From assembly GCA_964435035.1 (NCBI GenBank), contig CAYSXR010000001.1, positions 144,192 to 208,191 of the forward strand: a stretch of 64,000 nucleotides of DNA, in the 5' to 3' direction. A program made the translations under genes and the position numbers. Positions 46,446 to 63,850 of the stretch are shown here, one piece after another (position 1 is the first letter of the stretch; every line of letters starts with the position of its first letter). Under the pieces are notes generated by a model that was given only the letters and a program-made list of their open reading frames with translations, did no database searches and had not been told where the DNA came from. The stretch is from an uncultured Gammaproteobacteria bacterium. Lineage in GTDB: Bacteria > Patescibacteriota > Patescibacteriia > Magasanikbacterales > UBA922.

Positions 46446-46655
46446 ACTGCGTTATTTCAAAAGCCCTACATAGGTCTTCGAAATAGCAATCCAGGGGCCC
46501 CATCAGAGAGGATATGTGTCCCTTCTGATGGAGTCCCTGGTCTAGGAGCTCCCACTGTGGCCCGTTCGGGCAATAGTGAGAGCCTTAGGCTCATTACAAT
46601 CGAAGAAGCTAGAACACGTGCCCCTATGAAAGGGGTGTAAACGAGGAGATCAGAA

Positions 46656-48104
46656 ATGATTGACCGCAACAAGAAGAGCAACAAGAAGAGCACGCCCGTG
46701 AAGGGCGGCGCTGCGGCGAACCCGCAGGCGATGGCAACCGTGGCGTCTCACAAGGACGACACGGCTCAGATCGATGTGGTGGTCGAGACCAATCCCGAGG
46801 CCGACAAGGTCGAGGGTGAGGTCAAGGCCGATGAAGAGGCGAAGGTCGAAGAGACCGTCGCCACCGCCCCGACCGAGAACGTCGAGAAGAGCGAGGAGCC
46901 GGCCGTTGTGGTCGACCCCGAGCCCGAGCTCGAGCAGAAGCGGAACTTCCGTAAGGAAGACCTCCGCCTCCGGTACAACGACAACCCGCAGGTGCTGCTC
47001 ACCTCCGCGGATCTCAGCGAAGAGGACAAGGTCCTCATCGGCGAGATCGCGAGCGAGCAGAACCAGGTCGTCCGCGACTATGCCGCGCTGGCACAGGAGC
47101 TGACCGACGAGAAGGACCAGCTCGAGCAGAAGCTCGACGCGACCAACTCCAAGCTGGGGAACGTCACCAACCTCATCGCGACCACGGTCAAGGAGACCGT
47201 GGGACAGGTGGACAAGGAGACGTCGGCCTTGATCGAAGGTCTGAAGATCGAGATCGAGGGCGTCATCGGCAAGGGTAACGGCGTGAAGAACGCCGTCACG
47301 AAGATCGGGGACGATGTCAACAAGGACATCGGCTCGCTCAAGGGTCAGGTCAACGCCAACGCCAAGTCGGTCAACGACAAGGTCGATGGGATGGCCGCGA
47401 TGCTCGGGAAGATCGACGAGAAGATCTCCGAGATCAAGTCCCCGCCGCCCCCGCAGCAGCCGCCGGCTCAGTCCAGCACCACCCCGTCCTCCGGATCCTC
47501 CGGGTGGCCGTGGGTCGTGGCCGTGGGCATCTTGCTCGCGGCCGTGATCGCGGTCTTCCTCCTGAACAAGGATGTGAAGATCGAGGTCCAGGTGCAGCAG
47601 CCGGCGGTGAACACCGTGAAGGGTGTGGTGCCGCCGGTGGTGGACAACGCTCTCGGGGTGACCTCGCAGCAGGTGACCCCGGGTGGACCGGGGAATCCGA
47701 TCGTGCCCACGGTGGTCGGTGCCACGTCCGAGGATCCCTGCAAGGGGAAGGTCGGTGGGGAGCTCGGGTCGTGTGTCCTTCAGCTGGAGAAGTTCCGGCC
47801 GAAGGGGTTCACTGATGCGCACTGGAACACGGTCGTCGAGACCTTCCAGAACGTCATCATGGTCCCCTTGAGCGTTCCGTTCAAGGACATCAAGCACCAC
47901 GACAAGGCCATCGAGCACAACATGAGGAAAGACGCGGCACTGCAGGCGTGCGTCGACGCATACGTCTTGAAGACGGATGATGTCGAGTCGAACGTCCGGT
48001 GTCAGCGGGCGGTCGATTGTCTGTTCACTTCGGTGGACGAGGCAGCACAGTGCTACATGACGCATACGCGCTCGATCACGGGCGTTTTGGTCACTGTCAA
48101 CTGA
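46656..48104 (+). CDS. high-GC island gene A: membrane protein with cytoplasmic acidic/coiled-coil N-domain, one TM, extracytoplasmic C-domain with 6 Cys
   Basis: GC about 63-66% with strong GC3 bias; SD GAGGAG; TM WPWVVAVGILLAAVIAVFLL preceded by PPPPQQPP linker. Confidence 0.65.
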   Translation: MIDRNKKSNKKSTPVKGGAAANPQAMATVASHKDDTAQIDVVVETNPEADKVEGEVKADEEAKVEETVATAPTENVEKSEEPAVVVDPEPELEQKRNFRKEDLRLRYNDNPQVLLTSADLSEEDKVLIGEIASEQNQVVRDYAALAQELTDEKDQLEQKLDATNSKLGNVTNLIATTVKETVGQVDKETSALIEGLKIEIEGVIGKGNGVKNAVTKIGDDVNKDIGSLKGQVNANAKSVNDKVDGMAAMLGKIDEKISEIKSPPPPQQPPAQSSTTPSSGSSGWPWVVAVGILLAAVIAVFLLNKDVKIEVQVQQPAVNTVKGVVPPVVDNALGVTSQQVTPGGPGNPIVPTVVGATSEDPCKGKVGGELGSCVLQLEKFRPKGFTDAHWNTVVETFQNVIMVPLSVPFKDIKHHDKAIEHNMRKDAALQACVDAYVLKTDDVESNVRCQRAVDCLFTSVDEAAQCYMTHTRSITGVLVTVN

Positions 48105-48159
48105 ACCTCAACCCAACTAGTCCGACCTCCCTCGGGAGGTCGGACACAGGAGAACAGAC

Positions 48160-49095
48160 ATGAAGCAGCTCGTCGCGAAGATCGTGGTTTATTACATCGT
48201 ACTTCTCTCGGCGTCGGCCTTCGGCTCGACGCCGAACCCCGGTGACCAGTTCGACCTGATCCAGGGAGGGATCCCGGCGAAGGTCGAGGTCACGCAGCAG
48301 GAGATCAAGGCGATGGACACGTCCATCGACCAGCTCCTGAAGCGCACCGGCGGTCTCCTCAAGAAGGACGCCGAGCTCAAGAAGGAGCTCGAGGACCTCA
48401 AGAAGGAGCTCGAGGACCTCAAGAGCAAGCTCGACAAGGTGGTGAAGCCGGGTGATCTCACGGTCATCCGAGTGGATCTGGGAAGGTTGTGGACGCAAGT
48501 CAACAACCATGGACAGCGCCTCACCGAGCTCGAGCAGGACGTCGAAGATCTGAAGAGGAGCGACAAGGCTCAGGACGATCGACTCGGTGATCACGACCAG
48601 AAAATCGAGGACATCAACAAGCGCCTCGATCGAGGTCTCGGAGTGAAGTTCGGCATCGGAGCCTATGGCGTCTACGGGACGCAAGGCTCGATCAACGGTG
48701 GAGCTTCGGCTCGGCTGAGGATCCCGCTGTCCGGTGGATGGCAAGCGATCGTCAATGGCGGAGTCGGCGGCAACCATCAGGGAGCTTCAGGATTCGCCGA
48801 TCTGTCGGTCGGCTACCAGTTCGCGAGCGGCATCTACCTGGGGGCAACCCTCGGTATCGACGCCAACTGCGACGGTATGTGCACCAGGCTCCTCACGGAG
48901 ATCTGGGGCGCAGGTCCCGACATCGGCTACCTGTCCGACGATGGACTCTTCATCCGGGCTCGTGTGCTCTTCGGGAGCGAGTGGATCAAGGGTCCGACGA
49001 TGCAGATCGAGTACCCGGATCGTACGGTCTTCAAGACCGACGAGTCCCGGGAGTTCGGCATCTCGGCTTTGATCCAGCTCGGTCACGAGTTCTAG
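48160..49095 (+). CDS. high-GC island gene B: secreted coiled-coil protein with Gly/aromatic-rich C-terminal domain ending in Phe (OMP beta-barrel-like)
   Basis: signal peptide; KKELEDLKKELEDLKSKLDK repeats; C-terminal alternating hydrophobic pattern and terminal ...LGHEF; followed by GGGGAGTgtctctACTCCCC hairpin. Confidence 0.6.
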   Translation: MKQLVAKIVVYYIVLLSASAFGSTPNPGDQFDLIQGGIPAKVEVTQQEIKAMDTSIDQLLKRTGGLLKKDAELKKELEDLKKELEDLKSKLDKVVKPGDLTVIRVDLGRLWTQVNNHGQRLTELEQDVEDLKRSDKAQDDRLGDHDQKIEDINKRLDRGLGVKFGIGAYGVYGTQGSINGGASARLRIPLSGGWQAIVNGGVGGNHQGASGFADLSVGYQFASGIYLGATLGIDANCDGMCTRLLTEIWGAGPDIGYLSDDGLFIRARVLFGSEWIKGPTMQIEYPDRTVFKTDESREFGISALIQLGHEF

Positions 49096-49346
49096 ACTTC
49101 AAGATTCGGGGAGTGTCTCTACTCCCCGGACCCCTCACCTCGCCGACTTCAAGGCAGAAGGGATAAGACAATGAGACAAACACTCGAGTAAACGGCGTGG
49201 TCGCACAACGCGGCCCCCAATACTGGAGCATGGGCGATATTTCGAAAGAAATGTCGCCCCTCGCACAGCGTATATCAGTCTCTGGTATGCGATGACGAGA
49301 AAAGCATCTCACGTAAATCCCGACTAAATCGGGACACGTGACAAGC

Positions 49347-49375
49347 TTGACAAACGAGAGTATTTATGCTATACT
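49347..49375 (+). promoter_or_regulatory. extended -10 promoter TTGACA-N17-(TGc)TATACT
   Basis: same cassette as at 46417 and 63780; lies in an AT-rich spacer inside the high-GC block, about 310 nt upstream of gene C start. Confidence 0.55.
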
Positions 49376-49685
49376 AAGCTGTTACAAAATAAAGAAGTGC
49401 CATGGGAAATCTCGATGTAGTCGGGGTATCTATGGTAGATCGTCATGCACTGCATGGTGGTCCATTGAACCTTACAATATATGCGAAATGTATAAAAAGC
49501 TTGAAAGGCTAGAAAGGCCGGAAAGGCTTGAAATGCTAGAGAACGTATCTTGTGACGTGAAGAAAGAAATTTTCAATAAGAATTTTTTCTTAGCGTCACG
49601 AGGAGTTCTCAGGCGTGAAAACTTCTCGTGTGGTACACGAGGAAGCAACAACAAAACCCCGATTGAATCGGGGAGGAGAAGAGTC

Positions 49686-51452
49686 ATGAAGAAGTTCAAC
49701 AAGTTCCTGTTCGTCGTCATGTTCATCTCGTTCGTCGCGGCCATCACGGGCTGCGCCGATCACGGTGGCGAGACGGTCGTCGTCAAGGGTGACGATGGGG
49801 AGAGCGTCAAGCTCTGCCCCGAGGAGCATCAGTGCTCCTCGGCCGAGTTCTGCAACTCGCAGGGTCTCTGCGTCATCCCCGGTGCCAACGGCACCAACGG
49901 CGAGGACTTCGAGCGATGCTCGAATAGTCGTGGTGACTGTGTCGGTAACGAGCTCTGCAACTCGCAGGGCGTGTGTGTGCTCGAAGGTCCGCAAGGGCCG
50001 GCGGGGGAGTCCTGTACCGTGTCGACGAAGGTCGACGGGTGCTTCTTCCTCTACTGTGGCGCAAGCGTCACGGAGATCTGCGACGGCGAGGACGGTGTGT
50101 CCTGCACGGTCGCAGGGCAGCCGGACGGCAGCGCTCAGGTCGAGTGCTCGGACGGTTCGTTCGCGACCATCCTCCCCGGACAAGACGGCGAGGACGGTCT
50201 CAACGGCACGAGCTGCACGGCCTCGACGGTCAAAGGTTGCCTCGTGGTGACCTGCGGAACGCAGTCGACGGAGATCTGCCCGGAGGATCTTCCGGATCCC
50301 GAGCCGGTCGACGGCTGCCAGAAGGACTCGGACTGCACGGACGGCAGCGAGTGCACCAACGACATCTGCGATCTCAACACCGGCACCTGCCGGTACGTGT
50401 CGCAGGTGTGTGATGACGGCGTCGCCTGCACCAACGACTGGTGTGACACGAACGGCTACTGCCGTTCGACCGCGGACAATGATCAGTGCAGCGGCGGCGA
50501 CTTCTGCTTGCCGACCGGTTACTGGTTTTGGTCCTCGGCGGTGGGTTCTGAGGAACTCGCTGACGGAGGCTGTTACGAGTGCCGCTGGGACTCTGATTGT
50601 GCCGACGGCGACGCGTGTACGGTCGACACCTGCGACGCGGGTGTTTGCAAGAAGGAAACGCGCGAGTGCCCCACGGGTGCGACGTGCGTCGAGTACTCGA
50701 GCAACTACTACGACGACTCGGAGTGGAACTACGTGTGCCAGGACAATCCGTCGTGCAGCAACAACAGCCAGTGCGACGACGGCAAGTACTGGACGACGGA
50801 TGCGTGCGTGGCCGGGGAGTGTGTCTACACCCAGGTGTCGTGCAACGACAACAACGCATGCACCGTGGACACGGTGAACTCGAGTGGGCAGTGCACCTAC
50901 GCCCAGATCTCGTGCGACGATGGCAAATCCGCCACGGTCGACACGTGCTCTGCGAATACGGGGTGCGTACACACGCCGGTGAACACCGGCTGCGAGCACG
51001 ATCTCGATTGCGATGACGTCGACGGTACGACCACGGACCTGTGCGAGGACAACGGGAGCTGTACACATACTCCCAATGCCCAGTGCAAGTCCCTGACGGT
51101 CAAGGTCGGCTGGGCCATCCTGTGGTCGCGCGGTCCCGAGATCGGAACCACCAATGTCCCGATGGGCAACTGGCGTAGCTGCGAGGAAGACGAGGCGGAG
51201 AACTGCCGTACCATGTCGTGGTGCGGTGACGACATCGTGGAGTTCAATGTTCAGCAGATGCCGAACGTGGCAGGTGCCGACTGGCTCGTGAAGAACGAGA
51301 AAGGCGACAGCCCTTGCACGTCGAACGCAGATGCGACCTTGAACTACACGCCCGCTGATCTCTTCGTCGGGGCGACGCCGGTGCAGAAGGGCTGTTCGCT
51401 CTTCTGCGACCCGAACGGGTACACCAACTACACCTGCGATTCCGCGGAGTAG
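49686..51452 (+). CDS. high-GC island gene C: Cys-rich lipoprotein (about 589 aa, many CxxDxCD / CDDG repeats)
   Basis: ORF track extends to 49338 but that stretch is AT-rich leader containing the promoter; GGAGGAG SD before ATG at 49686; lipobox-like FVAAITGC then ADHGG; more than 60 Cys. Confidence 0.6.
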   Translation: MKKFNKFLFVVMFISFVAAITGCADHGGETVVVKGDDGESVKLCPEEHQCSSAEFCNSQGLCVIPGANGTNGEDFERCSNSRGDCVGNELCNSQGVCVLEGPQGPAGESCTVSTKVDGCFFLYCGASVTEICDGEDGVSCTVAGQPDGSAQVECSDGSFATILPGQDGEDGLNGTSCTASTVKGCLVVTCGTQSTEICPEDLPDPEPVDGCQKDSDCTDGSECTNDICDLNTGTCRYVSQVCDDGVACTNDWCDTNGYCRSTADNDQCSGGDFCLPTGYWFWSSAVGSEELADGGCYECRWDSDCADGDACTVDTCDAGVCKKETRECPTGATCVEYSSNYYDDSEWNYVCQDNPSCSNNSQCDDGKYWTTDACVAGECVYTQVSCNDNNACTVDTVNSSGQCTYAQISCDDGKSATVDTCSANTGCVHTPVNTGCEHDLDCDDVDGTTTDLCEDNGSCTHTPNAQCKSLTVKVGWAILWSRGPEIGTTNVPMGNWRSCEEDEAENCRTMSWCGDDIVEFNVQQMPNVAGADWLVKNEKGDSPCTSNADATLNYTPADLFVGATPVQKGCSLFCDPNGYTNYTCDSAE

Positions 51453-51670
51453 TCGTACCCACAAACATTTCGTGTAAAAGCTTTGAGTAGCCTAGCTACC
51501 AGACTCAAAGTTCAATCAACGTAGCGGGAGGGGGCACAAGCGTTCATCTGAATTGCGCAAGCGATTCAGTGACGAGTGCCTCCCTCCCATTCCAACATAT
51601 CTTTATCAAAATTCAGAACTCAGATTACAGTGAGAGACTAGTGAGTATTGGTAGAGAGATGTGGGGATGG

Positions 51671-51726
51671 AAAATTCAAAACTTAAAACTTAAAACTCAA
51701 AATTTAGATTTAAGTTGTGAGTTATT
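51671..51726. repeat. AT-rich palindromic repeat (short copy) inside high-GC island
   Basis: AAAATTCAAAACTTAAAACTTAAAACTCAAAA + TTTAGATTTAAGTTGTGAGTT; matches arms of the 42071-42185 copy. Confidence 0.55.
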
Positions 51727-51794
51727 ACAAACCCTTTCCATCATTATGATGGTTTCAATTCCCCTCAACCGCGACGACAGAAATGTCACGCGCG

Positions 51795-51821
51795 GAAAAA
51801 ACCCGCGCATGCGGGTTTTTT
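51795..51821. terminator. bidirectional hairpin terminator AAAAAACCCGCGCATGCGGGTTTTTT
   Basis: perfect GC stem flanked by A6 and T6. Confidence 0.6.
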
Positions 51822-51913
51822 AAATTCCATTACCTCGGGTATATCGTATAATGATGGTATATCTATGGTAGAGGAATTCTACACGCCAGTTCACAAAAAC
51901 CAGGAGGGGACAC

Positions 51914-52651
51914 ATGTTGGGTATGACGTTTCGTTTGTTTGTTTTCTGTCTCACCGTGTTCACCGCCGCATGCATCGAGGATATGCGGCGGGAGGAAGCG
52001 TCCATGGTCCAGGTCGATACGTCGACTGGCATCATGGATATGGTGGAGGAAGTCAAAGACGTACCAGATTCACGGGTCCGTGATCGGTATGATATCGAAT
52101 TTCCTCCTACAGCCGACGAGTGTGTCGTCGATGAATTCATCGCAGAGGGAAGCCCTTGCGATGATGGCGATGCATGCACGATCGATGTCTGTATCCAGGG
52201 CATGTGTCGTAATCGAGCTATCGACTGCGACGACGGAAATCCCTGGACGGATGACGAGTGCATCGTCGACACTGGGGCGTGCTCCAGTGTACATCGGGTG
52301 ACTCATTTCACCGTTCGCGCGGAGCGTCCGGGAAAGGTGAAGCTTTGGTATGGGAATCACACCGAGCCAGAGACCTATCCCATGAACTCGAGCTTCGAGA
52401 TCCAGAAGATGGATCTCTGCGTCGAGAACCGTGTGCTCACGCTCGCGGTAGAGGACGAAGAGTTCCCGGGAACCTACTGGGGTTGTAACCCTGGCCTTCC
52501 TTCGAAGAGGGAACTCGCAGTCGAGATCGACGGGGTGGACACGCCCGGTTATTTCGCTGCGGATCTCGGATGGGAGGTGCCCAACTCTGCGTGTGGTGGG
52601 AAGGGAGAGGGTGACCTCTACTTCTTGCGGGCGCAACTCGCATGTGACTGA
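51914..52651 (+). CDS. high-GC island gene D: Cys-rich lipoprotein (245 aa), paralog of C and E
   Basis: signal + lipobox-like FTAAC; CDDGDACTIDVCIQGMCRNRAIDCDDGNPWTDDEC repeats; C-terminal CNPGLPSK domain shared with gene E. Confidence 0.6.
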   Translation: MLGMTFRLFVFCLTVFTAACIEDMRREEASMVQVDTSTGIMDMVEEVKDVPDSRVRDRYDIEFPPTADECVVDEFIAEGSPCDDGDACTIDVCIQGMCRNRAIDCDDGNPWTDDECIVDTGACSSVHRVTHFTVRAERPGKVKLWYGNHTEPETYPMNSSFEIQKMDLCVENRVLTLAVEDEEFPGTYWGCNPGLPSKRELAVEIDGVDTPGYFAADLGWEVPNSACGGKGEGDLYFLRAQLACD

Positions 52652-52998
52652 TGACCGGGTGTCTCGCGAAGGATAGGATGGCGTATACGCTATGCTGTCC
52701 ACCTTCGCGAGCACCACTAATTCAACAAATAGAATTATATTGACAAAATACTCTTTTCCTGATATGTTGATACGATTGTATCTACGCATATCGGATATCT
52801 AGAGAGGTATCTGGTATGCGCCACTGGAGAATCATTCTCAAGTGTGTATGTTCATTATAATCACATAAGTTTTTTGTTCAGCTAGAGGATGGGTGCAGAT
52901 AGAGGTATATGTAACATATCTTGTATCGATAGCCACCCTCTAGCTGAGACACAGTGTCACTGCTGGAGTTCAACGGCCTCACAACGGAGGAAGGCCAA

Positions 52999-55041
52999 AT
53001 GCGTCTGAAGAACAACAACAACCGGATGTTCATCATCACGGTTGCCCTCGCCATGGGGTTCATGGCGGCGTGCACGGAACACGGCGGCGACGAGCCGATC
53101 GTGGTCGTGATGAAGGCGGACCTCGACCTCGACGAGGTCCCCAACAACGTCGACAACTGCCCGGGGGACAACAACCCCGATCAGTTGGACACCGACGGCG
53201 ACGGCATGGGCGATGCGTGCGACAACGACGTCGACGGCGACGGGGTCTTGAACCCCGCCGACAACTGCCCCGACAACTTCAACCCCGACCAGGCGAACCT
53301 CGACAAGGTCCTGGCCGACAGCGGCAACGTCACCGTGGTCGCGGATCTCTTCGGAGACGTCTGCGACAACGACGACGACGGCGACGTGGTCTGCGACCCC
53401 TGGCTCGGCGTGGACGGGTGGGAAGAATTCCATCCCGGTCAGGGCGAGACGTGTCAGGGCGAGGACAACTGTCCCGACGTCGCCAACGCCGACCAGGCGA
53501 ACCTCGACAAGGACTTCGAGGGCGACGTCTGCGACAACGACGTCGACGGCGACGGCGACCTCAACGGCGCAGACAACTGCCCGCTCGTGACCAACGCCGA
53601 CCAGGCAAACCTGGATCGGGACGACTGGGGCGACGCCTGCGACACCGACGACGACAACGACAGCTTCTGCGACGAAGCTGCCCCCGTCTCGATGCCGCGA
53701 AATGCGCCCGCGATGCCCCTCTGCGAGGGCGAGGACAACTGCCCCCGCTTCAAGAACGCGGGACAGGAAGACATGGACGAGGACGGCATGGGCGACGTCT
53801 GCGACGACGACTGCGACGGGGACCTCTACCCCGAAGCGTCGCCCTGGGATTTCCCCAACCTGTCGTGCTTCGTGTATTGCAATCCGGAAGGTCCGGGAAC
53901 CGAGTGCGACGACGCGAACACGTGCACCACGGACACCTGCAACGGGCAGGGCGTTTGCGAGTACGTGTTCACGCAGTCCGAGACGTGCGAATGCGTCTTG
54001 GACTCCGACTGCGAGCCGACCGACGCCTGCGTCACCGAGATGGCGTGCGTGGAAAACACGTGCGTCGAGACCGGATGGAAGGTCCTGACCGACGGGGACA
54101 ACTGCACCATCGACACCTGTGATCCCTCGACCGGCGTGGTCACCCACGTCGAGAAGGACTGTGGTGGGGACCTCTGCGGAGGAGGCCTCTCGTGTAACCG
54201 CATGACCGGAGAGTGCAGCACACCCGTGCCGCAAATTCCGATCAACGACAGCAACGCCTGCACCACCGACGCGTGCGATCCCGAGACCGGCGTGGTCACC
54301 CACGTCGCGATCGTCTGCGACGATGGGAACGCATGCAACGGCACCGAGACGTGCAACCCGGCTTCCGGGTGCGTCGCGGGTACGCCGCTCACGTGCGATG
54401 ACGGAAGCGTCTGCACGATCGACAGTTGTTCGGCAAACACCTGCCAACACGTGGCGGTGACGACGAACGACAACAACATGTGCACCACCGACACCTGCGA
54501 TCCCGAGATGGGGGTGCAGCACACGGCGGTGGTGTGCAACGACGTGAACTCCAACACCACCGACACCTGCGATCCGGCGACGGGTTGCGTGCACACGCCG
54601 ACGGGGAACTGCACGGTCAACGCGGATTGCAACGACAGCAATCCCCTGACCTACGACACCTGCGTCGCGCTCGTCTGCCAACATGTGGAAGGTGTCCGCG
54701 TGCAGGTCTCGTCGACCGACACGTCGGAGACCTGGCAGGTCAATTTCTACTACAACGGTACGACGATCTCCGGCAACCTGCCCTTCGACGGGACCTTGCC
54801 GAAGACGCTCGCATGCAGCTGGGGCGCCGACATCGCCGTCAACCGTCCGAGCACGAACTTGTTCTTGGACTGCAACCCGGGGTTCCCCTCGAAGTCCACC
54901 CTGACCGTCATGGTCAATGGTGTCACGAAGGCGAACGACTTCCAGGTTCGTTCGCAGGCATGCGACGGCGCTCCGCCGGGCAACCTGTGGCTCTCCGACG
55001 AGAGCGGTGACAACGACCTGGGATGCCCCGCGGCACCCTAG
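52999..55041 (+). CDS. high-GC island gene E: lipoprotein with ~7 thrombospondin type-3 (Ca-binding) repeats and ~8 CTxDxCD Cys-rich repeats
   Basis: SD GGAGG then ATG at 52999 (ORF track starts 52954); lipobox-like FMAAC followed by TEHGGDEP (compare gene C ADHGGETV); TSP3 consensus DxDxDGxxDxxDNCPxxxNxDQ repeated from about 53150 to 53830; C-terminal CNPGFPSK domain. Confidence 0.65.
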   Translation: MRLKNNNNRMFIITVALAMGFMAACTEHGGDEPIVVVMKADLDLDEVPNNVDNCPGDNNPDQLDTDGDGMGDACDNDVDGDGVLNPADNCPDNFNPDQANLDKVLADSGNVTVVADLFGDVCDNDDDGDVVCDPWLGVDGWEEFHPGQGETCQGEDNCPDVANADQANLDKDFEGDVCDNDVDGDGDLNGADNCPLVTNADQANLDRDDWGDACDTDDDNDSFCDEAAPVSMPRNAPAMPLCEGEDNCPRFKNAGQEDMDEDGMGDVCDDDCDGDLYPEASPWDFPNLSCFVYCNPEGPGTECDDANTCTTDTCNGQGVCEYVFTQSETCECVLDSDCEPTDACVTEMACVENTCVETGWKVLTDGDNCTIDTCDPSTGVVTHVEKDCGGDLCGGGLSCNRMTGECSTPVPQIPINDSNACTTDACDPETGVVTHVAIVCDDGNACNGTETCNPASGCVAGTPLTCDDGSVCTIDSCSANTCQHVAVTTNDNNMCTTDTCDPEMGVQHTAVVCNDVNSNTTDTCDPATGCVHTPTGNCTVNADCNDSNPLTYDTCVALVCQHVEGVRVQVSSTDTSETWQVNFYYNGTTISGNLPFDGTLPKTLACSWGADIAVNRPSTNLFLDCNPGFPSKSTLTVMVNGVTKANDFQVRSQACDGAPPGNLWLSDESGDNDLGCPAAP

Positions 55042-55226
55042 AACTTCTCCTGCGACGACTGCAGGAGCATCTCGAAGTGAACGTGTGATTCGCTTCTGTA
55101 GGTGAATGTTCGAAGACAATCACACAAACCGGGGGAAGTGCGCTCGCTACTACAGCGACCGCTTCCTCCCCTCTACTCTGAATTCAAGTACGATCTTGAG
55201 AATAGAGTAGAAGGGCACGCTAGAAT

Positions 55227-55253: not shown

Positions 55254-55355
55254 GTCATTCCGAGCGAGTGCACCCGAGCCGAGGAATCTTTCCTGTATAA
55301 GACCATGTAAGAAAGATTCCTCGACTCCCTCGGAGACTCGGTCGCTCGGAATGAC
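55254..55355. repeat. hairpin repeat element copy A (termini GTCATTCCGAGCGA ... TCGCTCGGAATGAC)
   Basis: perfect 14-bp terminal inverted repeats plus inner GAGGAATCTTTCCTG/CAGGAAAGATTCCTC stem; two further copies at 61105-61246 and 61583-61719. Confidence 0.7.
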
Positions 55356-55416
55356 TATCGTCACTTTTTCTTTTTTTAATTTCCCCCTTGCTTGTGATAT
55401 ACTTATCTAGAATTTT

Positions 55417-56493
55417 ATGAAACAAATCCATGTCGTGCATATCATTCCCAAGCTTGGTTTCGGTGGAGCCGAGCGTTTTGTGGTTGAACTTGCCAAGCAT
55501 ATGCCATCCAAGAATATCCGCCAGTCAATTATTACCCTGTGGGATGATCGTCCGCTGATGAAGGAATTACCTGATTCAGTTTCGTGCACCGTGTTTCCTT
55601 TTGATCGTATCGGATATATACATCGGATTCCAAAGCTTACAAAAATGCTTCGAGAAATGCAGGCTGATATAGTGCATACACATCTTTTTAGTGCAGATCT
55701 ATGGGGGAGGCTTGCAGCAAAGTCACTGGGGATTCCGGTAGTTACGACTGAACATAATATCAATGTAGGAGAATCGTGGCTCTGGGGAAGAATCAAACGT
55801 GCAATGAAAAAATATTCTCGCGTGTACACCGCACCATCAAGTGCTGTTCGAGAGTATATGAAAACGGCGTATGGGATTGCAGTTGAAAATACTCGAGTGA
55901 TTATGCATGGTATCGAATTAGAACATTTTATCAAAATAAAACCTGCAGCTTTTGCCCCACCATACAAGCTACTCATGATGGGAAGAATGGTAGAACAAAA
56001 AGGGCATTCAATTGCGCTTGATGCATTACAAAAAATTAGAGATATTTCGTGTACGCTTACGATGGTGGGTGATGGAGAAAAAAAAGAATCGCTCATGCAC
56101 TATGCAAAAGAATTAGGAGTAAGTGATCGAGTGATATGGAAATCAGCCACCGAGAATGTGTCGAGAGAATATGCAACAGCAGACATCGTACTCGTTCCAT
56201 CACGATGGGAAGGATTGGGAATTGTGGTATTTGAAGCGCTCGCAAGTGAGAGATTGGTAATCGGATCTCGGGTCGGAGGAATTCCTGAAATTATTATTGA
56301 TGGAGAAAATGGTCGATTGATTCCCGTAGAAAATAGCGACGCACTTGCAGATGCAATTCGGGCAAGTGTGAAAAATCAATTAGCTTCAAAAAAAATTGCA
56401 AAGCAGGGTCGTGTCTGGGTAAAAGAACAAGGAAGTGTTGCACGTATGACTGAAGCATATGAGGCACTGTATCAGGAAGTAGTAAAAAAATAA
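55417..56493 (+). CDS. glycosyltransferase family 4
   Basis: 358 aa; N-terminal HIIPKLGFGGAERFV and C-terminal E-x7-E region SRWEGLGIVVFEALASERLVIGSRVGGIPEII. Confidence 0.75.
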   Translation: MKQIHVVHIIPKLGFGGAERFVVELAKHMPSKNIRQSIITLWDDRPLMKELPDSVSCTVFPFDRIGYIHRIPKLTKMLREMQADIVHTHLFSADLWGRLAAKSLGIPVVTTEHNINVGESWLWGRIKRAMKKYSRVYTAPSSAVREYMKTAYGIAVENTRVIMHGIELEHFIKIKPAAFAPPYKLLMMGRMVEQKGHSIALDALQKIRDISCTLTMVGDGEKKESLMHYAKELGVSDRVIWKSATENVSREYATADIVLVPSRWEGLGIVVFEALASERLVIGSRVGGIPEIIIDGENGRLIPVENSDALADAIRASVKNQLASKKIAKQGRVWVKEQGSVARMTEAYEALYQEVVKK

Positions 56494-56500
56494 TCTACGT

Positions 56501-57976
56501 ATGGCTGAAGCGACGACTTCAAAATTTACCTGGTTTCTCGGTGTTTCCACACTTATGGTGGCACTTATTTTTGCTATCATGTTGAAGGGGAATATAGTGG
56601 TTGCAGCCATCCTTGGGTTTTTGATAATTTTATTTTTTTCCTATCATTTGGAAATTGGTCTGTATGTATTACTCATTCTCTATCCACTCATCGGATGGGA
56701 ATTCCATGCAAATATGTTTCGGGGACTACTCGGTTCGAGTTCTACGGTGCTTGAATTCTATGCGCCGATGGTCGATGTGTGGGCACTTCTTATGGTTGGT
56801 GCATATGTCTTTTATCTAATTCGCAAGTGGCTGTATGGCGAGAAGCATCGGATTTACCTGCCCGAATTTGGATGGTATTCATTATTTATTATCTCAGCAG
56901 TACTGTCTCTGATAAATGTTGCAGGGTGGGAATTACAGACAAGTGTTTCGTATATTGTCCGTTTCCTCTTGTTTGTGTATCTAGCATATGTAGTACTTGG
57001 TACAAATATTATGCGTACCAAAAAAATATTACATCGTGCACTTGAAGTCGTCGTATGGATTAGTGTGCTTGGTGCACTATTAGGACTTCTCTCGTTTGCG
57101 ATTGGTCCGGGGCGTGGAGTGATGCGTGCAGTTCCTATTCCTGTATTTGGATGGCAACCATTCAATTATGATATGGTGAGTGGACATATCCTTCTAGCAG
57201 AAGTGCTTGTAGTGGCATTCCCAATCGCCATATATCTCGCATTGAGGGCGAAAACTGATGCACAAAAAATTGCATATACCATTGCGAGTGCGATATGTGG
57301 AATAACTGCATTTCTTACCTTTTCTCGCGCGAGCTGGCTCACACTTATGGTGCAGGGAATGTTGGCACTCTATATATTTCGTTCGCAGATCAAATGGACA
57401 AAAATCAGAGGATATTTTTTTACCTCACTCCTATTCTTGATTCCGGCAGGAGCGTATATGGCACTGCTTCTACAGAGTGCAGTGGTATCGTCATCCAATA
57501 GTACGCGTATTACTCTAACTGAAGTTGCATGGAGTTTTTTTCTCGAACATCCTCTCGTAGGACAGGGTGCAGGAACATTTGTAGAGAGATTGCGTGATAT
57601 ACATTATTTTACGTATGAATTTGGCGCTCCGATTGATGCGCATAGTATTCTTATGAAAATTCTTGCTGAGCAGGGAATACTCGGGATCGTCACCTTTGGG
57701 TTGTTTATCGGATTATTATTATTTTCAATATATAAGCGAACAATTGCCAAAGAATATAGCGCTGAAGCTCGTGGAGTGGCACAGCTGTGTTTGTTTTTAA
57801 TCATTGTGCCCTTATTTTTTCAGATGTTTAATACACAATATTATTCGGCGCGTATGTGGGTACCATTCATGCTCGCGATTGCGGCACATCTCCTGTATCG
57901 CCACGAGCATGAAGGGGACGCATTCTATACGCACTTCCGTCCGAATAAATACAAGATTGATACTGACGTTACCTAA
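56501..57976 (+). CDS. O-antigen ligase/polymerase (Wzy_C/WaaL) family membrane protein
   Basis: 491 aa, about 10-12 TM; FSRASWLTLMVQGMLALYIF region typical of the O-antigen ligase domain; sandwiched between two GT4 genes. Confidence 0.6.
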   Translation: MAEATTSKFTWFLGVSTLMVALIFAIMLKGNIVVAAILGFLIILFFSYHLEIGLYVLLILYPLIGWEFHANMFRGLLGSSSTVLEFYAPMVDVWALLMVGAYVFYLIRKWLYGEKHRIYLPEFGWYSLFIISAVLSLINVAGWELQTSVSYIVRFLLFVYLAYVVLGTNIMRTKKILHRALEVVVWISVLGALLGLLSFAIGPGRGVMRAVPIPVFGWQPFNYDMVSGHILLAEVLVVAFPIAIYLALRAKTDAQKIAYTIASAICGITAFLTFSRASWLTLMVQGMLALYIFRSQIKWTKIRGYFFTSLLFLIPAGAYMALLLQSAVVSSSNSTRITLTEVAWSFFLEHPLVGQGAGTFVERLRDIHYFTYEFGAPIDAHSILMKILAEQGILGIVTFGLFIGLLLFSIYKRTIAKEYSAEARGVAQLCLFLIIVPLFFQMFNTQYYSARMWVPFMLAIAAHLLYRHEHEGDAFYTHFRPNKYKIDTDVT

Positions 57977-57981
57977 ACTTT

Positions 57982-59061
57982 ATGATGACTATTGTGCAGA
58001 TTATTCCCCGATTGTATCCTGGTGGTGCTGAGCGCCTGGTCTTGCAATATGCAGAAGAATTCAGCTCTCGCGATTGTTCGGTCCATGTGATGAGTAGTGT
58101 GGGTGATGGCGCACTTCGTCCGTTGTTTGAGAGTACAAACGCAGAACTTATTGTAGGTAGTCGTGAAAAACACGGGGGACGATGGGGTGTATGGAAATTT
58201 TTAAAAAAAGAATTGCAGCGGATTCAGCCAGATATTGTGCATACGCATTTGATGGGCGGAGACATGATTGGATATCTCTGGAAACGTATATCACCTCAAA
58301 CGATCTGGATTTCGACTGCGCATAATGTGGAATTTCATACACTTTGGATCAAACGATTTGCATGGAAAATATTTTTGAAAAAAGTTGATGTAGTAATTGC
58401 CGTGTCTGACGCGGTAGCATCGTACTCCCATGAAGAGTTTGGTGTTCCAAAAGAAAAAATTCAGACGATTTATAATGGCGTAGAAATAGGGAAGTGGAAA
58501 AAAATTCCAACAAAAAAAATTGACCCGCGTACACCGGTGTTTGCAACTATTGGACGATTGGAAGAGCAAAAAGGACATATATTCGCGCTTCGAGCGCTTG
58601 CAGAATTGCAATCGCTGCCATGGATCTATCATGTGTATGGAGATGGAAGTTTGCTTAGCATGTTACAATATACTGCTCAGGCATTGGGGATTGCCAATCG
58701 TATTGTTTGGCATGGGAATCAGAGTGATATGGCGAGTGCTTTGAAAGAGATTGATGTAGTGGTACAGCCGTCGCTGTGGGAAGGGATGAGTCTGGTGGTG
58801 CTTGAATCAATGGCAGCAGGACGCACGGTGATTGCAAGTACTGCAGCAGGCGCAGGAATTATTGAACATGGGCGTACGGGATTTTTATTTGAAACAGGTA
58901 ATACGAAAGAATTAGTACGCACATTCAAAGATGTGTTGGAAAATCCAACAGATGTTACACGTATTGCAAAACAAGCGCGCACTTATGCAGAAAAAAATTT
59001 TGATATGAAACATCATTATCGTGCAGTGAAAAATCTTTATTCATCTCTTGTGTCATCATAA
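57982..59061 (+). CDS. glycosyltransferase family 4
   Basis: 359 aa; IIPRLYPGGAERLV N-terminus; SLWEGMSLVVLESMAAGRTVIASTAAGAGIIEHGRTGFLFE. Confidence 0.75.
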   Translation: MMTIVQIIPRLYPGGAERLVLQYAEEFSSRDCSVHVMSSVGDGALRPLFESTNAELIVGSREKHGGRWGVWKFLKKELQRIQPDIVHTHLMGGDMIGYLWKRISPQTIWISTAHNVEFHTLWIKRFAWKIFLKKVDVVIAVSDAVASYSHEEFGVPKEKIQTIYNGVEIGKWKKIPTKKIDPRTPVFATIGRLEEQKGHIFALRALAELQSLPWIYHVYGDGSLLSMLQYTAQALGIANRIVWHGNQSDMASALKEIDVVVQPSLWEGMSLVVLESMAAGRTVIASTAAGAGIIEHGRTGFLFETGNTKELVRTFKDVLENPTDVTRIAKQARTYAEKNFDMKHHYRAVKNLYSSLVSS

Positions 59062-59064
59062 GGT

Positions 59065-61074
59065 ATGGTGCCTGTCCGTCGGCTACAATACATGGTGTAT
59101 ACGCTGCTCGTGGTTTTTTGTAGCACCTTTTTTCAGATACCGGTACACGCGAATACTGCTCCAAAAAAAGCAAATTATTTTTTGAAATGGAGTATTACTG
59201 ATTTTGAAATGCAAGAATTAGCAAAATGGGATTTGCTTATTCTTGATATGGAAAATCAAATAACTAATCCATCAAAATTAAAAAAAATCAGAGAATTAAA
59301 TCCGGATATTATGATACTTGCCTATATTACATCGCAAGAAATTCGTGTGGATGCACGCGGGGGTCCGGGTGTAATGCGAGACCGTCTAGCGCGGGGAATT
59401 CCTGATGCGTGGTATCTCACCAATAGTAAAAATGTACCGTTCAGTTTTTGGCCAGGTACACACATGCTCAATGTTACTAATTATGCACCAGTCGTTGAAG
59501 GAAGAAGATTCAATGAATATTTAGCTGATTTTGTGGCTTCAGAAGTAATTTCAAGTGGTCTGTGGGACGGAGTTTTTTATGATAATGCGTGGAAAGATGT
59601 ATCATGGTTCACCGGCACCGATGTGGATTATGATCGAAGTAATTCTCCTGATGGAAGTGTGGATGCAAAATGGTATGAGGGGATGGTTGCGTTATATGGG
59701 CACACTAGAGCAAAGGTGGCGAGTAATATTATTATTGTAGGAAATGGACACACTGAAGGGTATGTCGAAGCACTCAACGGGAAGATGATAGAAAATTTTG
59801 AAAAACATCGGTGGAAGGATATTATGCAGACGTACGCCTTGAATCAAAGCGCAAAACATCAGCCCAACGTAAATATTATCAATTCAAATACGGGAAATGT
59901 GGAGAATTCTTACAATTATCGAGCAATGCGTTTTGGACTCACGAGCGCTTTATTAGAAGATGGATATTATTCATTTGATTATGGTGACGAGGATCATGCA
60001 CGTACCTGGTATTATGATGAATACGATGTCTCTTTGGGTAATGCACTAGGTAAATCAAGTTCACGAAGTGGTGCTGCTGACTATACTGAAGATATATGGT
60101 CACGAAATTTTGAAAATGGGATTGCGGTCGTCAATAGTACTAATGAAGTAAGGACCGTTTCATTGAATGGTGAATATGAAAAAATTCATGGTGTACAAGA
60201 TTCGGCGGTGAATGATGGATCGATTGTATCAGAAGTCACACTTGCACCAAAAGATGGTCTCATACTTCTGAAAACGTTTGAAACATTGAAGAAAGTAGTA
60301 TTTACCAATGGTTTTTTTGCTCGCTTTTTCAAGCCTACGGGAGAGCGTGCACGAAATGGTATGTTTGTATTCGAAGAAGGTCAGGAAGGTGGCGCGCAAA
60401 TTGCACATCTTGATCTTGATTTTAATAATAAAGAAGAATTGATTATCGTAGATAATAACAAAATTTTGGCCTGGAGAGATGATGAGCAGCCATTATTCAA
60501 AATATATCCGTATGGAGCGAATTACACAGGCTCACTGCAGGTTGCAGTAGGCGACTTGAATAACGATGGTTTTTATGAGATCTATGTGGCGCCGAGTGCG
60601 GGATTCAAAGAACCAATTCGTGCGTACAATCGTCATGGAGATGTGGTGGTATCTGATTTTTTTCCGTTTGGAAAAAACTACAAGGGTGGATATCATATAG
60701 CTCTCACCAAAGCAGTCGAAAAAGTTCCTTCACGTCTGATTATTGGATCAGGGACAGGAGTCGCCCCAACGATTACGTTATTTGAATACAGATTCAAAAA
60801 ATTAAAAAGTTTTACTGCGTTTGAATCAGGATTCCGTGGTGGTGTGAGTGTGGCTGCAGGAGACCTCGATGGAGATGGAGTCCAAGAAATCATTGCTGGA
60901 AAAGGGCAGGGAGGTAGTCCGACTGTGCGAGTGTTCTCCTTAGATGGAAAAGAAAAGTATAAATCATTCAATGCGTACACTACACTGTTCAAACCAGGAA
61001 TAGATGTCCGAGCACTTGATATTGATTTTGATGGGGTAGATGAGATTATGACATTGAGTGAAAGTGCGCTATAA
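59065..61074 (+). CDS. secreted protein: putative glycoside-hydrolase-like TIM-barrel N-domain + C-terminal FG-GAP/VCBS-type repeats
   Basis: signal peptide; WDLLILDMEN...ILAYITSQE resembles GH114/GHL-type barrels (weak); C-terminal GDLNNDGFYEIYV, GDLDGDGVQEIIAG, LDIDFDGVDEIM repeats. Confidence 0.45.
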   Translation: MVPVRRLQYMVYTLLVVFCSTFFQIPVHANTAPKKANYFLKWSITDFEMQELAKWDLLILDMENQITNPSKLKKIRELNPDIMILAYITSQEIRVDARGGPGVMRDRLARGIPDAWYLTNSKNVPFSFWPGTHMLNVTNYAPVVEGRRFNEYLADFVASEVISSGLWDGVFYDNAWKDVSWFTGTDVDYDRSNSPDGSVDAKWYEGMVALYGHTRAKVASNIIIVGNGHTEGYVEALNGKMIENFEKHRWKDIMQTYALNQSAKHQPNVNIINSNTGNVENSYNYRAMRFGLTSALLEDGYYSFDYGDEDHARTWYYDEYDVSLGNALGKSSSRSGAADYTEDIWSRNFENGIAVVNSTNEVRTVSLNGEYEKIHGVQDSAVNDGSIVSEVTLAPKDGLILLKTFETLKKVVFTNGFFARFFKPTGERARNGMFVFEEGQEGGAQIAHLDLDFNNKEELIIVDNNKILAWRDDEQPLFKIYPYGANYTGSLQVAVGDLNNDGFYEIYVAPSAGFKEPIRAYNRHGDVVVSDFFPFGKNYKGGYHIALTKAVEKVPSRLIIGSGTGVAPTITLFEYRFKKLKSFTAFESGFRGGVSVAAGDLDGDGVQEIIAGKGQGGSPTVRVFSLDGKEKYKSFNAYTTLFKPGIDVRALDIDFDGVDEIMTLSESAL

Positions 61075-61104
61075 AGTAAAAGCTTAAAACGCAAAAGTAT
61101 TAAT

Positions 61105-61246
61105 GTGTCATCCCGAGGGAGGAGTGCATCCGACGATTCGAGGGATCTTTCCTGCATAAGGCTGATTAGGAAAAATGTATTTAAAGCTTAGTAAGGACTT
61201 GGTAGGAAAGATTCCTCGACTCGGGTGCACTCGCTCGGAATGACAC
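61105..61246. repeat. hairpin repeat element copy B (degenerate left arm, intact right arm ...TCGCTCGGAATGAC)
   Basis: right arm CTCGACTCGGGTGCACTCGCTCGGAATGAC nearly identical to reverse complement of copy A left arm; lies 42 bp upstream of GIY-YIG gene. Confidence 0.6.
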
Positions 61247-61287
61247 ATTAAGTAATTGTATTGGGTGGTAAAAAGTAAGGGGGTAGT

Positions 61288-61566
61288 ATGAAAACATACT
61301 ATGTGTATATTATGTCGAGCATTAATCAAACACTCTATGTCGGTATAACCAATAATTTATTCCGTAGAGTTTTTGAACATAGGATGAAACTCAATGAAGG
61401 TTTTACAGAAAAATATCAGATATATAAATTAGTATATGCTGAATACTATACAAATGTGCAGGAGGCAATACGTCGTGAAAAACAAATCAAAAAGTGGCGT
61501 CGAGAGAAGAAAATCAAATTGATTGAAAAAGATAATCCCGATTGGGTGGATCTCGCAAGGAATTAA
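61288..61566 (+). CDS. GIY-YIG nuclease family small protein
   Basis: 92 aa; MKTYYVYIMSSINQTLYVGITNNLFRRVFEH = GIY...YVG motif; paralogous in style to 38375..38647. Confidence 0.75.
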   Translation: MKTYYVYIMSSINQTLYVGITNNLFRRVFEHRMKLNEGFTEKYQIYKLVYAEYYTNVQEAIRREKQIKKWRREKKIKLIEKDNPDWVDLARN

Positions 61567-61582
61567 TGGTGTGATTGGTATT

Positions 61583-61719
61583 GTCATTCCGAGCGACCGA
61601 GTCTTCGAGGGAGTCGAGGAATCTTTCCTGTATAGTATTCTGTAAAAAAATGTAACTATAGTTTGGTAAATACTTTGCAGGAAAGATTTCTCGACTCGGG
61701 TGCACTCACTCGAAATGAC
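61583..61719. repeat. hairpin repeat element copy C (GTCATTCCGAGCGACCGAG... / ...CACTCGAAATGAC)
   Basis: left arm matches reverse complement of copy A right arm almost exactly; starts 17 bp after GIY-YIG stop. Confidence 0.65.
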
Positions 61720-61794
61720 AGTGAATAGCTCGGAATCAGGTCACAGAAGTTGCAAATATGCTTGGATCAAGTATCATTACCTTGAAGAATAAGA

Positions 61795-61845
61795 AGTTTT
61801 AAATTTTTAGTTTCAGTTTTGAACTTTGAGTTTTAAGTTTTGAGA
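61795..61845. repeat. AT-rich palindromic repeat, half copy
   Basis: AGTTTTAAATTTTTAGTTTCAGTTTTGAACTTTGAGTTTTAAGTTTTGAG nearly identical to right arm of 42071-42185 copy. Confidence 0.55.
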
Positions 61846-61854
61846 TAGATATCT

Positions 61855-63754: not shown

Positions 63755-63779
63755 GTTTTAAGTTACATGGATTGAACAC

Positions 63780-63808
63780 TTGACAAAAGTATATAGATGT
63801 GGTATAGT
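63780..63808 (+). promoter_or_regulatory. extended -10 promoter TTGACA-N17-(TGg)TATAGT
   Basis: same cassette as at 46417/49347, about 45 nt upstream of the GT4 start. Confidence 0.55.
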
Positions 63809-63850
63809 ACGTTGTTCGTAATAATAATTTTACACACCCTAACCAATAGT

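Follow-up and report, generated by a model that had tools for sequence, protein, structure and literature searches.

GIY-YIG gene and hairpin repeats in the window

The window analyzed in this study, a 64,000-nucleotide stretch of a Candidatus Magasanikbacteria genome, carries three composite hairpins (A, B, and C), two of which bracket a gene for a small GIY-YIG protein (Table 1). The initial annotation had placed the three elements correctly (A at 55254–55355, B at 61105–61246, and C at 61583–61719), with A in the opposite orientation to B and C. Its finer measurements required correction: the gaps between the elements and the gene are 41 and 16 nt instead of 42 and 17, and the inner stem of A (GAGGAATCTTTC/GAAAGATTCCTC) comprises 12 bp rather than 15. 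On one side of hairpin A lies the terminator of a high-GC gene and on the other the promoter region of a GT4 gene, and the pairing of hairpin B reaches 6 bp past its arms (AATGTG/CACATT).

Each hairpin is an inverted pair of arms. The 14-nt terminus GTCATTCCGAGCGA, searched with up to two mismatches, was found six times in the window (55254+, 55342-, 61107+, 61231-, 61583+, and 61706-), as compared with an expectation of 0.33 (mean of 100 shuffles, none of which reached six). All six arms were intergenic. The proposed repeat family is real. The arms are 35–41 nt long and of the form GTC-ATTCC...GGAAT-C; every one of them fits GTC-A(4 nt)...(4 nt)T-C, and its stem pairs perfectly over 5 bp. Five arms belong to the two types, X and Y, to which all arms had been assigned, whereas the left arm of B represents a third, divergent type (sharing 39/50 positions with Y and 37/48 with X). 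B and C are homologous in the right half of the loop (84% identity over 75 aligned nt). An independent Logan assembly (L001) contained the GIY-YIG gene together with hairpin C and, of hairpin B, the right arm, its contig ending inside B; given this agreement, an assembly artifact was rejected.

Table 1. Positions of the repeat arms, composite hairpins, and genes in the window
Feature	Position	Strand	Basis
X-type SRM arm, element A (GTC-ATTCC...GGAAT-C)	55254..55288	+	sequence, motif count, arm alignment
Y-type SRM arm, element A	55315..55355	-	sequence, motif count, arm alignment
Composite hairpin A (inverted SRM pair)	55254..55355	.	folding; spacer comparison
Left SRM arm, element B, divergent type; compensatory basal stem ATCCC/GGGAT	61107..61147	+	arm alignment
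Right SRM arm, element B, X type	61210..61244	-	motif count, arm alignment
Composite hairpin B	61100..61250	.	folding
ssnA-like gene, 92-aa single-domain GIY-YIG nuclease	61288..61566	+	Pfam, homologues, catalytic residues, tblastn
Left SRM arm, element C, Y type	61583..61623	+	motif count, arm alignment
Right SRM arm, element C, X type; compensatory basal stem ATTTC/GAAAT	61685..61719	-	motif count, arm alignment
Composite hairpin C	61583..61719	.	repeat alignment, folding
3' remnant of 23S_rRNA_IVP (PF05635) gene	61747..61803	+	window EVANMLGSSIITLKNKKF vs L202 REIANILGSSILTLKRKK

The single arm as the conserved unit

The 100–140-bp hairpin had been taken as the unit of the repeat. Sequence comparison indicates that the functional unit is instead each 35–41-nt arm, which is conserved and covaries. 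In two window arms, both sides of the stem have changed in a compensatory manner (ATCCC/GGGAT and ATTTC/GAAAT); this preserves the intra-arm stem yet produces mismatches in the long hairpin, which argues that the arm is what is selected. Such compensatory change was seen not only in the window but also between phyla. Among 41 partner arms anchored on non-stem bases only, 27 were variant, and 16 of these 27 retained all five Watson–Crick pairs; position by position, changes on both sides resulted in a Watson–Crick pair 32 times and in an unpaired position six times. The arms also form a continuum from the NTS-type GTCATTCCCGCGAAAGCGGGAATC through GTCATTCCGAGCGAAGCGAGGAATC to the 35–41-nt window arms, with GTC-A...T-C common to all. 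A detector requiring GTC, stem, and C without the A was too permissive (25 observed versus approximately 15 in shuffles) and was tightened to GTCA.

Folded with RNA parameters, A, B, and C reached -54 to -78 kcal/mol (z -7 to -12), far below shuffled sequences. The single window arms folded as ssDNA with nearest-neighbor parameters gave -1.7 to -4.3 kcal/mol (z about +0.3 to +1), not better than shuffles under a model that takes no account of sheared G.A pairs or GNA loops, and the canonical NTS gave -9.0 kcal/mol (z -5.5) by the same method. The intra-arm stem is much less stable than the inter-arm hairpin, which might out-compete it.

Probable assignment to the Ssn nuclease family and its repeats

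The 92-amino-acid product matched Pfam PF01541 (E 4.3e-14, residues 4–76), in agreement with its reading as a GIY-YIG protein. No model was matched in an NCBIfam search, and the nearest PDB entry, 1zg2, is a distant UPF0213 protein (E 2e-5). More than 600 homologues of 90–100 amino acids were found at approximately 60% identity, the closest at 70%, and Tyr7, Tyr17, Arg27, and Glu64 were invariant in an alignment of 35 sequences. Literature searches with the sequence strings and on GIY-YIG combined with hairpins or MITEs yielded nothing relevant; the literature on dRS3 and COG2827 led to the description of the Ssn nucleases (Chenal et al., Nat Commun 2025; PMC11893778). The elements, initially described as novel, and the GIY-YIG gene match the SRM (NTS-like) repeats and the nuclease of that description.

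Ssn proteins are single-domain GIY-YIG nucleases of approximately 94 amino acids whose binding targets are NTS/SRM hairpin repeats in single-stranded form; the cut is made just 5' of the repeat (PMC11893778). SsnA neither binds nor cuts dsDNA, RNA, or the reverse strand; it acts on NTS ssDNA alone, with cleavage upstream of the motif (PMC11893778). Site-specific ssDNA hydrolysis beside the repeat is the sole activity demonstrated for the family. The ssn genes are typically bracketed by their repeats, with 71% of homologues SRM-flanked, and the mutations Y6A, Y17A, and E64A inactivate Neisseria meningitidis SsnA (PMC11893778). Y17 and E64 of the window protein share the numbering of the latter two mutant sites.

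In a tblastn search against N. gonorrhoeae (NZ_CP119142.1), the window protein aligned at 47.1% identity over residues 6–89 with E 4e-18, below the homology threshold of 1e-10 that Chenal et al. had set for comparison with N. meningitidis SsnA (PMC11893778). The matched locus is flanked by the canonical NTS CGTCATTCCCGC.CAGGCGGGAATC and reads [NTS fwd...NTS rev] gene [NTS fwd][NTS fwd...NTS rev], a layout as in the window; a Planktothrix homologue (63% identity) likewise showed repeat pair, gene, and repeat pair. The putative membership of the window protein in the Ssn clade (cd10448) rests on the N. gonorrhoeae locus together with this context. The SRMs are Ssn-related motifs, relatives of the Neisseria NTS/dRS3 repeat. 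By homology, the product of 61288–61566 is a predicted site-specific ssDNA endonuclease; very probably, it belongs to the Ssn family and the six arms are its cognate SRMs, arranged in three inverted pairs.

The window loci resemble the described system in a single-domain GIY-YIG protein of approximately 92–94 amino acids with conserved catalytic residues, in oriented hairpin repeats with a GTCAT start and an ATC end on both sides of the gene, and in many gene-less copies in intergenic DNA. They differ in the arms, which are 35–41 nt long and consist of a basal stem of 5 bp around a long interior rich in CCGAG, whereas the NTS is an 8-bp palindrome. The host differs as well, a CPR bacterium (Candidatus Magasanikbacteria) outside the RefSeq set of Chenal et al. 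The published SRM pattern, HGTCWYN(0-2)YYVSBRHN(0-5)WNVSBRGN(0-2)RNCYNB (PMC11893778), and the NTS consensus had no match in the window. The pattern misses the window arms because their interior is too long; among 80 homologue loci it occurred in 16, and the strict NTS in one. The window arms are therefore a longer variant outside the formally defined or assayed motif class.

By homology with SsnA, we infer the following mechanism for the window protein. When DNA becomes single-stranded, as in incoming transforming or conjugative DNA or in replication or repair intermediates, each arm would display an oriented motif of GTC, the basal stem, and C. The nuclease would bind this motif and hydrolyze the strand at a point a few nucleotides to the 5' side of GTC. 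As the arms come in inverted pairs, the outer edge of each pair would offer a cleavable site on either strand.

Association of the arms with GIY-YIG genes

The predicted tie between the repeats and this GIY-YIG family was borne out as a specific one in metagenomic sequences. Among 80 homologues, a forward arm lay within 250 nt upstream in 54 and a reverse arm downstream in 53, and 44 were bracketed by both, against a background density of 0.32 arms per kb. In genomes, only 2 of 135 arm copies had such a gene within 300 nt and 133 were orphans, which ruled out that every copy adjoins a GIY-YIG gene. Near-identical 25-nt arms occurred in more than 15 phyla among the matches listed. Gene-less pairs such as A would be dispersed copies of the recognition motif.

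Comparison with Magasanikbacteria relatives

Close Magasanikbacteria relatives were without the SRM-ssn-SRM module. In L205, the orthologous site is an empty spacer of 19 nt; in L202–L204 it carries a 23S_rRNA_IVP gene, whereas the window has the module and an IVP remnant, which forms the right edge of the replaced segment. Likewise, neither L205 nor L202 has element A in its orthologous spacer. The family shows presence/absence polymorphism between close relatives, and the pair-gene-pair module is very probably accessory DNA, gained or lost in this lineage. The module replaces approximately 300 nt of the IVP gene and is not a clean insertion, and no target-site duplication or flanking direct repeat was visible at A, B, or C.

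Alternative explanations

One alternative places the function at the RNA level: the hairpins would be terminators, mRNA stabilizers, processing sites, or an undescribed structured RNA, and the adjacency of the GIY-YIG gene would be incidental. The stability of the predicted RNA hairpins and the intergenic position of all copies fit this view, as do a T-rich run approximately 9 nt past A and, in some homologues, a GAGGAAT within the arm that lies a few nucleotides before the ATG like a Shine–Dalgarno sequence. Yet B and C lack a downstream T-tract, the elements are present in either orientation, and a terminator scan placed the true terminator upstream of A and none at the elements. No Rfam family reached the gathering threshold in the 55–62 kb region, as the initial annotation had anticipated, and a search at E ≤ 10 returned just miRNA-model noise (21–24 bits versus cut-offs of 84–90). 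The covariation fits a small intra-arm stem with an oriented flank rather than a long RNA helix, and the strong, orientation-specific bracketing of GIY-YIG genes is not incidental. SsnA, moreover, neither binds nor acts on RNA (PMC11893778). The terminator or processing role once considered for the hairpins is consequently not supported, and we regard a function at the RNA level as very improbable.

Another proposal extends the Ssn/SRM assignment and is compatible with it. SRM-ssn-SRM would be an autonomous IS-like or homing-like element whose GIY-YIG nuclease nicks ssDNA where the arms end. Hairpins that lack the gene, namely A and most of the copies in other places, would be non-autonomous MITE- or REP-like derivatives that it mobilizes. 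The presence/absence pattern of the module at the orthologous site and the absence of A from two relatives point in this direction, together with the TIR-like bracketing of the canonical gene by inverted arms and the predominance of orphan copies, as in REP/RAYT. Chenal et al. had already remarked on the IS-like NTS-ssnA-NTS layout and on the analogy with REP/BIME and IS200/IS605, and raised the same hypothesis (PMC11893778). The spread of near-identical arms across phyla also agrees with mobility, although constraint from a conserved binding protein can account for it. Against mobility stand the lack of visible target-site duplications, the divergence between B and C, which gives no sign of recent copying, and the identity of the closest protein homologue, which argues against recent transfer. 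GIY-YIG enzymes hydrolyze DNA without a covalent intermediate, so that rejoining would require host functions. What is seen in the window is an indel that combines replacement with deletion and could just as well be due to recombination. We consider an autonomous element of this kind possible but less than probable, and mobilization of the hairpins by the nuclease is retained as a hypothesis. A stronger version, in which SRM-ssn-SRM units are selfish elements of a new mechanistic class, with a nuclease of approximately 90 amino acids spreading its own gene and the gene-less pairs without a transposase or recombinase, appears unlikely. The enzyme would nick ssDNA marked by hairpins, either at the replication fork or in DNA entering the cell, and would depend on host repair; if so, the replacement of the IVP gene in this CPR genome would be a footprint of such an event.

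Relation to other repeat systems

The arms share the ATTCC...GGAAT core palindrome with the Neisseria dRS3 repeats and NIMEs (ATTCCC-N8-GGGAAT), which also bracket variable intergenic segments as inverted pairs. In contrast, dRS3 is a fixed, genus-specific 20-bp palindrome and a target of an IS110-family recombinase (PivNM) for Nf prophage integration; no such recombinase was seen at the window module. REP/BIME repeats with RAYTs (IS200/IS605-like Y1 transposases) are similar in that short hairpins are recognized as ssDNA, hundreds of intergenic copies occur, often as inverted pairs, and the single-copy gene of the recognizing enzyme is flanked by the repeats. A RAYT, however, is a transesterase of the HUH/Y1 type, which acts through a covalent intermediate and is able to join DNA again, whereas Ssn is a hydrolytic GIY-YIG enzyme with no known joining activity. 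MITEs likewise are small, intergenic, and bounded by terminal inverted repeats, but the window elements are without a target-site duplication or a DDE transposase. Free-standing GIY-YIG homing endonucleases, such as T4 Seg, resemble the module as GIY-YIG genes between conserved genes that are variably present in relatives; they differ in having a separate DNA-binding domain and cutting dsDNA, whereas the window protein is a nuclease domain alone.

Implications

The window module is real but of an already-known kind, a further example of Ssn, and extends the Ssn/SRM system to a CPR (Patescibacteria) genome. The arm class GTCATTCCGAGCGA...CGAGGAATC, commonest in environmental bacteria and spread over more than 15 phyla among the matches listed, escapes the published SRM pattern, so that surveys based on this pattern undercount the system. 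Such a distinct pairing of enzyme and site specificity would be on offer for ssDNA tools. The orthologous site, with its three states of empty spacer, IVP gene, and ssn module, provides a concrete case in which to ask whether such modules are mobile. CPR bacteria are believed to rely on DNA uptake, and an ssDNA-restricting nuclease with self-marks in the genome could therefore be relevant to CPR gene flow.

Composite Hairpins Flanking a GIY-YIG Gene

The sequence agreed with the initial annotation on the positions of three hairpins (A, B, and C) and the opposite orientation of A. The 14-mer GTCATTCCGAGCGA (≤2 mismatches) occurred at six sites in the window, which are the termini of the three hairpins, versus a mean of 0.33 in shuffled controls (six in 0 of 100 shuffles). 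Folding showed that the three elements form long hairpins with stability far above that of shuffles (z −7 to −12). The inner stem of A, described as 15 bp, was 12 bp long, and the assignment of arms to types X and Y failed for the left arm of B, which is a third, divergent type. B and C bracket an ORF with a GIY-YIG domain (PF01541; E 4.3e-14). In an independent Logan assembly of SRR12762285, both the gene and hairpin C were present and the contig broke off within hairpin B, which ruled out an assembly artefact as the origin of the elements.

Positions of the features discussed
Feature	Locus	Position	Remarks
Hairpin A	Window	55254-55355	Inverted relative to B and C (sequence check); right border of high-GC island
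Hairpin B	Window	61105-61246	Orientation as C; one side of GIY-YIG gene
Hairpin C	Window	61583-61719	Orientation as B; other side of GIY-YIG gene
GIY-YIG ORF (ssn gene)	Window	61288-61566	92 aa
Second GIY-YIG ORF	Window	38378-38647 (-)	MYYVVYFIESIKDPNRHYIGW...; just downstream of tmRNA gene
tmRNA gene	Window	38774-39173 (-)	
IVP 3' remnant	Window	61747-61803	Last 17 codons and stop
23S_rRNA_IVP gene	L202 (relative)	12069-12437	122 aa; PF05635
High-GC island	Window	~46600-55100	GC 0.52-0.65 versus about 0.40 elsewhere
AT-rich intergenic repeat	Window	7943-7984, 42071-42201, 51672-51713, 61794-61852	AAGTTTTGAACTTTGAGTTTTAAG... and complement; partly palindromic at 42071-42183
Promoter-like repeat	Window	46415-46447, 49345-49377, 63778-63810	ACTTGACAAAAAGGTATAAATATGCTATAGTAC (TTGACA ... 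TATAGT); two copies within high-GC island
Tandem array of SRM pairs	Dehalococcoidia OZ244885.1	6247-7141	Seven arm copies; period ~329 bp
ssn homologue with SRM pairs on either side	Planktothrix agardhii plasmid NZ_LR882964.1	17847-20122	

The Single Arm as Repeat Unit

The 100–140-bp hairpin had been taken as the repeat unit; compensatory changes, by contrast, preserved the stem within an arm and not the hairpin between arms. Two of the six window arms carried double compensatory changes, ATCCC/GGGAT (left arm of B) and ATTTC/GAAAT (right arm of C), which left the intra-arm stem intact and added mismatches to the long inter-arm hairpin. We also compared partner arms without presupposing pairing, using only non-stem bases as anchors (G-5 nt-TCG...CTC-5 nt-GAC). 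Among 41 partner arms, the stem was the same in 14 and different in 27, and 16 of these 27 kept all five Watson–Crick pairs; paired variants were ATCCT/AGGAT, ATCCC/GGGAT, ATGTC/GACAT, ATTCT/AGAAT, ATTTC/GAAAT, ACCTC/GAGGT, and ATGCT/AGCAT. By position, 32 double changes yielded a Watson–Crick pair versus 6 that yielded unpaired bases, several of the failures being visibly mis-anchored. These three lines of covariation showed the conserved unit to be the single arm, a putative small stem-loop of the form GTC-[ATTCC]-interior-[GGAAT]-C. Folded alone as ssDNA, the window arms reached −1.7 to −4.3 kcal/mol, not better than shuffles, and the canonical Neisseria repeat (NTS) reached −9.0 kcal/mol (z −5.5); support for the intra-arm hairpin of the window thus comes from covariation.

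A search for GTCATTCCGAGCGA-N(0-30)-CGAGGAATC, with each species represented by a single genome, matched at least 120 loci. The matches listed included Acidobacteriota, Chloroflexota, Verrucomicrobiota, Planctomycetota, Bacteroidota, Patescibacteria, Bacillota, Pseudomonadota, Nitrospirota, Gemmatimonadota, Armatimonadota, Omnitrophota, and others, and their commonest form was TGTCATTCCGAGCGAAGCGAGGAATCT, often with an inverted partner within ~100 nt. The tandem array in Dehalococcoidia is reminiscent of BIME arrays.

Association of Arms with GIY-YIG Genes

Whether other copies adjoin GIY-YIG genes depended on the direction of the comparison. Most arm copies among the matches listed were orphans without a GIY-YIG neighbour, and of 135 arms matched in genome loci totalling 844 kb, only 2 lay within 300 nt of a homologous gene. 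Starting from the gene, in contrast, the association was strong. In 80 metagenomic loci encoding proteins 50–63% identical to the window protein, a structural detector (GTCA, a perfect stem of ≥5 bp, and C after it) found a forward arm no more than 250 nt upstream in 54, a reverse-orientation arm downstream in 53, and both in 44, compared with a background of 0.32 arms per kb at >400 nt from the gene; the proposed link between the hairpin family and GIY-YIG genes was thereby upheld. Arms within one locus were usually alike (in L142, GTCATTCCGAGCGAAGCCGAGGAATCCCTTAA...gene...TTAAGGGATTCCTCGGCTTCGCTCGGAATGAC), and across these loci they formed a continuum, with GTCATTCCCGCGAAAGCGGGAATC at one end, a GAGCG type in between, and long arms bearing an apical helix at the other. 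In some homologues the ORF runs on into the downstream arm, which gives the protein the ending ...SSLRSE*.

The second small GIY-YIG ORF of the window matched an Ssn-like HMM weakly (E 1.8e-10 versus 2.7e-46 for the main gene), and no SRM-type arms were evident around it; it therefore probably belongs to a different GIY-YIG subfamily.

Relationship to the Ssn/SRM System

The arm variant GTCATTCCCGCG.A.GCGGGAATC resembles the Neisseria dRS3 repeat. This likeness led, through a literature search on dRS3, to the Ssn system, published in 2025 (Chenal et al., 2025; PMC11893778), so that the element family is not novel as had been proposed. SsnA, a 94-aa single-domain GIY-YIG protein (CDD cd10448), binds NTS (CGTCATTCCCGCGMAVGCGGGAATCYRG), an oriented hairpin repeat, only as ssDNA and cuts a few nucleotides upstream of it; the enzyme does not act on dsDNA, RNA, or the reverse strand, and it depends critically on the bases directly 5' of the palindrome and on the C that follows (PMC11893778). 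A generalised SRM motif occurs near 71% of homologues, on both sides in 42%, and in N. meningitidis the system reduces transformation by NTS-bearing DNA (PMC11893778).

Tyr7, Tyr17, Arg27, and Glu64 of the window protein were invariant in the alignment; Y6A, Y17A, and E64A inactivate SsnA (PMC11893778). A tblastn comparison with N. gonorrhoeae NZ_CP119142.1 matched the window protein to a gene of 47% identity (E 4e-18). The order of features there is [NTS forward ... NTS reverse] gene [NTS forward][NTS forward ... NTS reverse], the pair–gene–pair layout seen for B, the gene, and C in the window; the Planktothrix homologue (63% identity) has this layout too. The Planktothrix gene has an MmeI-type restriction-modification gene on one side and DISARM drmA on the other, a defence-island context. 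NZ_CP119142.1 (record length 2,167,441) is a 2.17-Mb chromosome filed as a plasmid; its ssnA-like frame seems to have no ATG in frame where the start is expected, so that the gene may either be a pseudogene or begin at an alternative start.

Neither the published SRM search pattern nor the NTS consensus matched anywhere in the window, which places its arms in a longer class beyond the formal motif; the SRM pattern matched only 16 of the 80 homologue loci.

Variation of the Locus among Relatives

To judge from a protein in the same 90%-identity cluster as the neighbouring GHL15/FG-GAP protein, the organism is a Candidatus Magasanikbacteria (CPR) bacterium. Four relatives carrying the GHL15/FG-GAP protein (L202–L205) had conserved gene order and a variable GHL15–DUF11 spacer. 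The spacer was 19 nt in L205 (GCA_018061425.1), held a 122-aa 23S_rRNA_IVP (PF05635) gene in L202, L203, and L204, and in the window consisted of the left flank AGTAAAAGCTTAAAACGCAAAAGTA, also present in L202-type relatives, followed by hairpin B, the ssn gene, hairpin C, and the IVP remnant (EVANMLGSSIITLKNKKF versus REIANILGSSILTLKRKK). The remnant and shared flank indicated that the module took the place of ~300 nt of the IVP gene, and these alternative contents mark the spacer as a hot spot for small accessory genes. Element A was missing from the orthologous terminator-to-promoter spacer of L205 and L202, and in the four relatives ~70 kb of syntenic sequence contained neither SRM arms nor an ssn gene, a presence/absence difference that agrees with insertion polymorphism. 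No target-site duplication was seen at the hairpins, and identity between B and C was only 84% in the 75-nt stretch that the repeat search aligned; the replacement could be old.

Proteins encoded in the high-GC island are rich in repeats, which in one of them include the Dictyostelium CTDC and thrombospondin type 3 kinds. Relatives L202 and L205 had the high-GC gene end as well, which shows a genuine island that they share and rules out a chimeric assembly. The two promoter-like repeats within the island suggest that its genes use host-type promoters. Past hairpin C, one copy of the AT-rich repeat directly precedes the DUF11 gene.

Interpretation

The best-supported reading, which we consider very probable, is that the window gene encodes an Ssn nuclease and that the arms are the SRM repeats cognate to it. 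By extension from the Neisseria enzyme, cuts would be expected a few nucleotides 5' of each GTCAT on the strand bearing the forward arm, at the outer edges of each arm pair.

Our data would fit an SRM-ssn-SRM unit that moves, or once moved, as a mobile element, but no precise insertion was observed, and we know of no joining activity for a hydrolytic GIY-YIG enzyme; on these grounds we regard mobility as an active process as rather doubtful. The discoverers had already put forward the idea of a mobile element, describing NTS-ssnA-NTS as insertion-sequence-like and comparing it with REP/BIME and IS200/IS605 (PMC11893778). It is highly improbable that the hairpins act at the RNA level, as a terminator, a processing site, or a new RNA: they matched no Rfam family, B and C are not followed by a T-tract, a real terminator lies upstream of A, the elements occur in both orientations, and covariation favours a small oriented stem.

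Read as an Ssn nuclease with its repeats, the locus adds to the published system a probable member in a CPR genome and a class of arms missed by the published motif.
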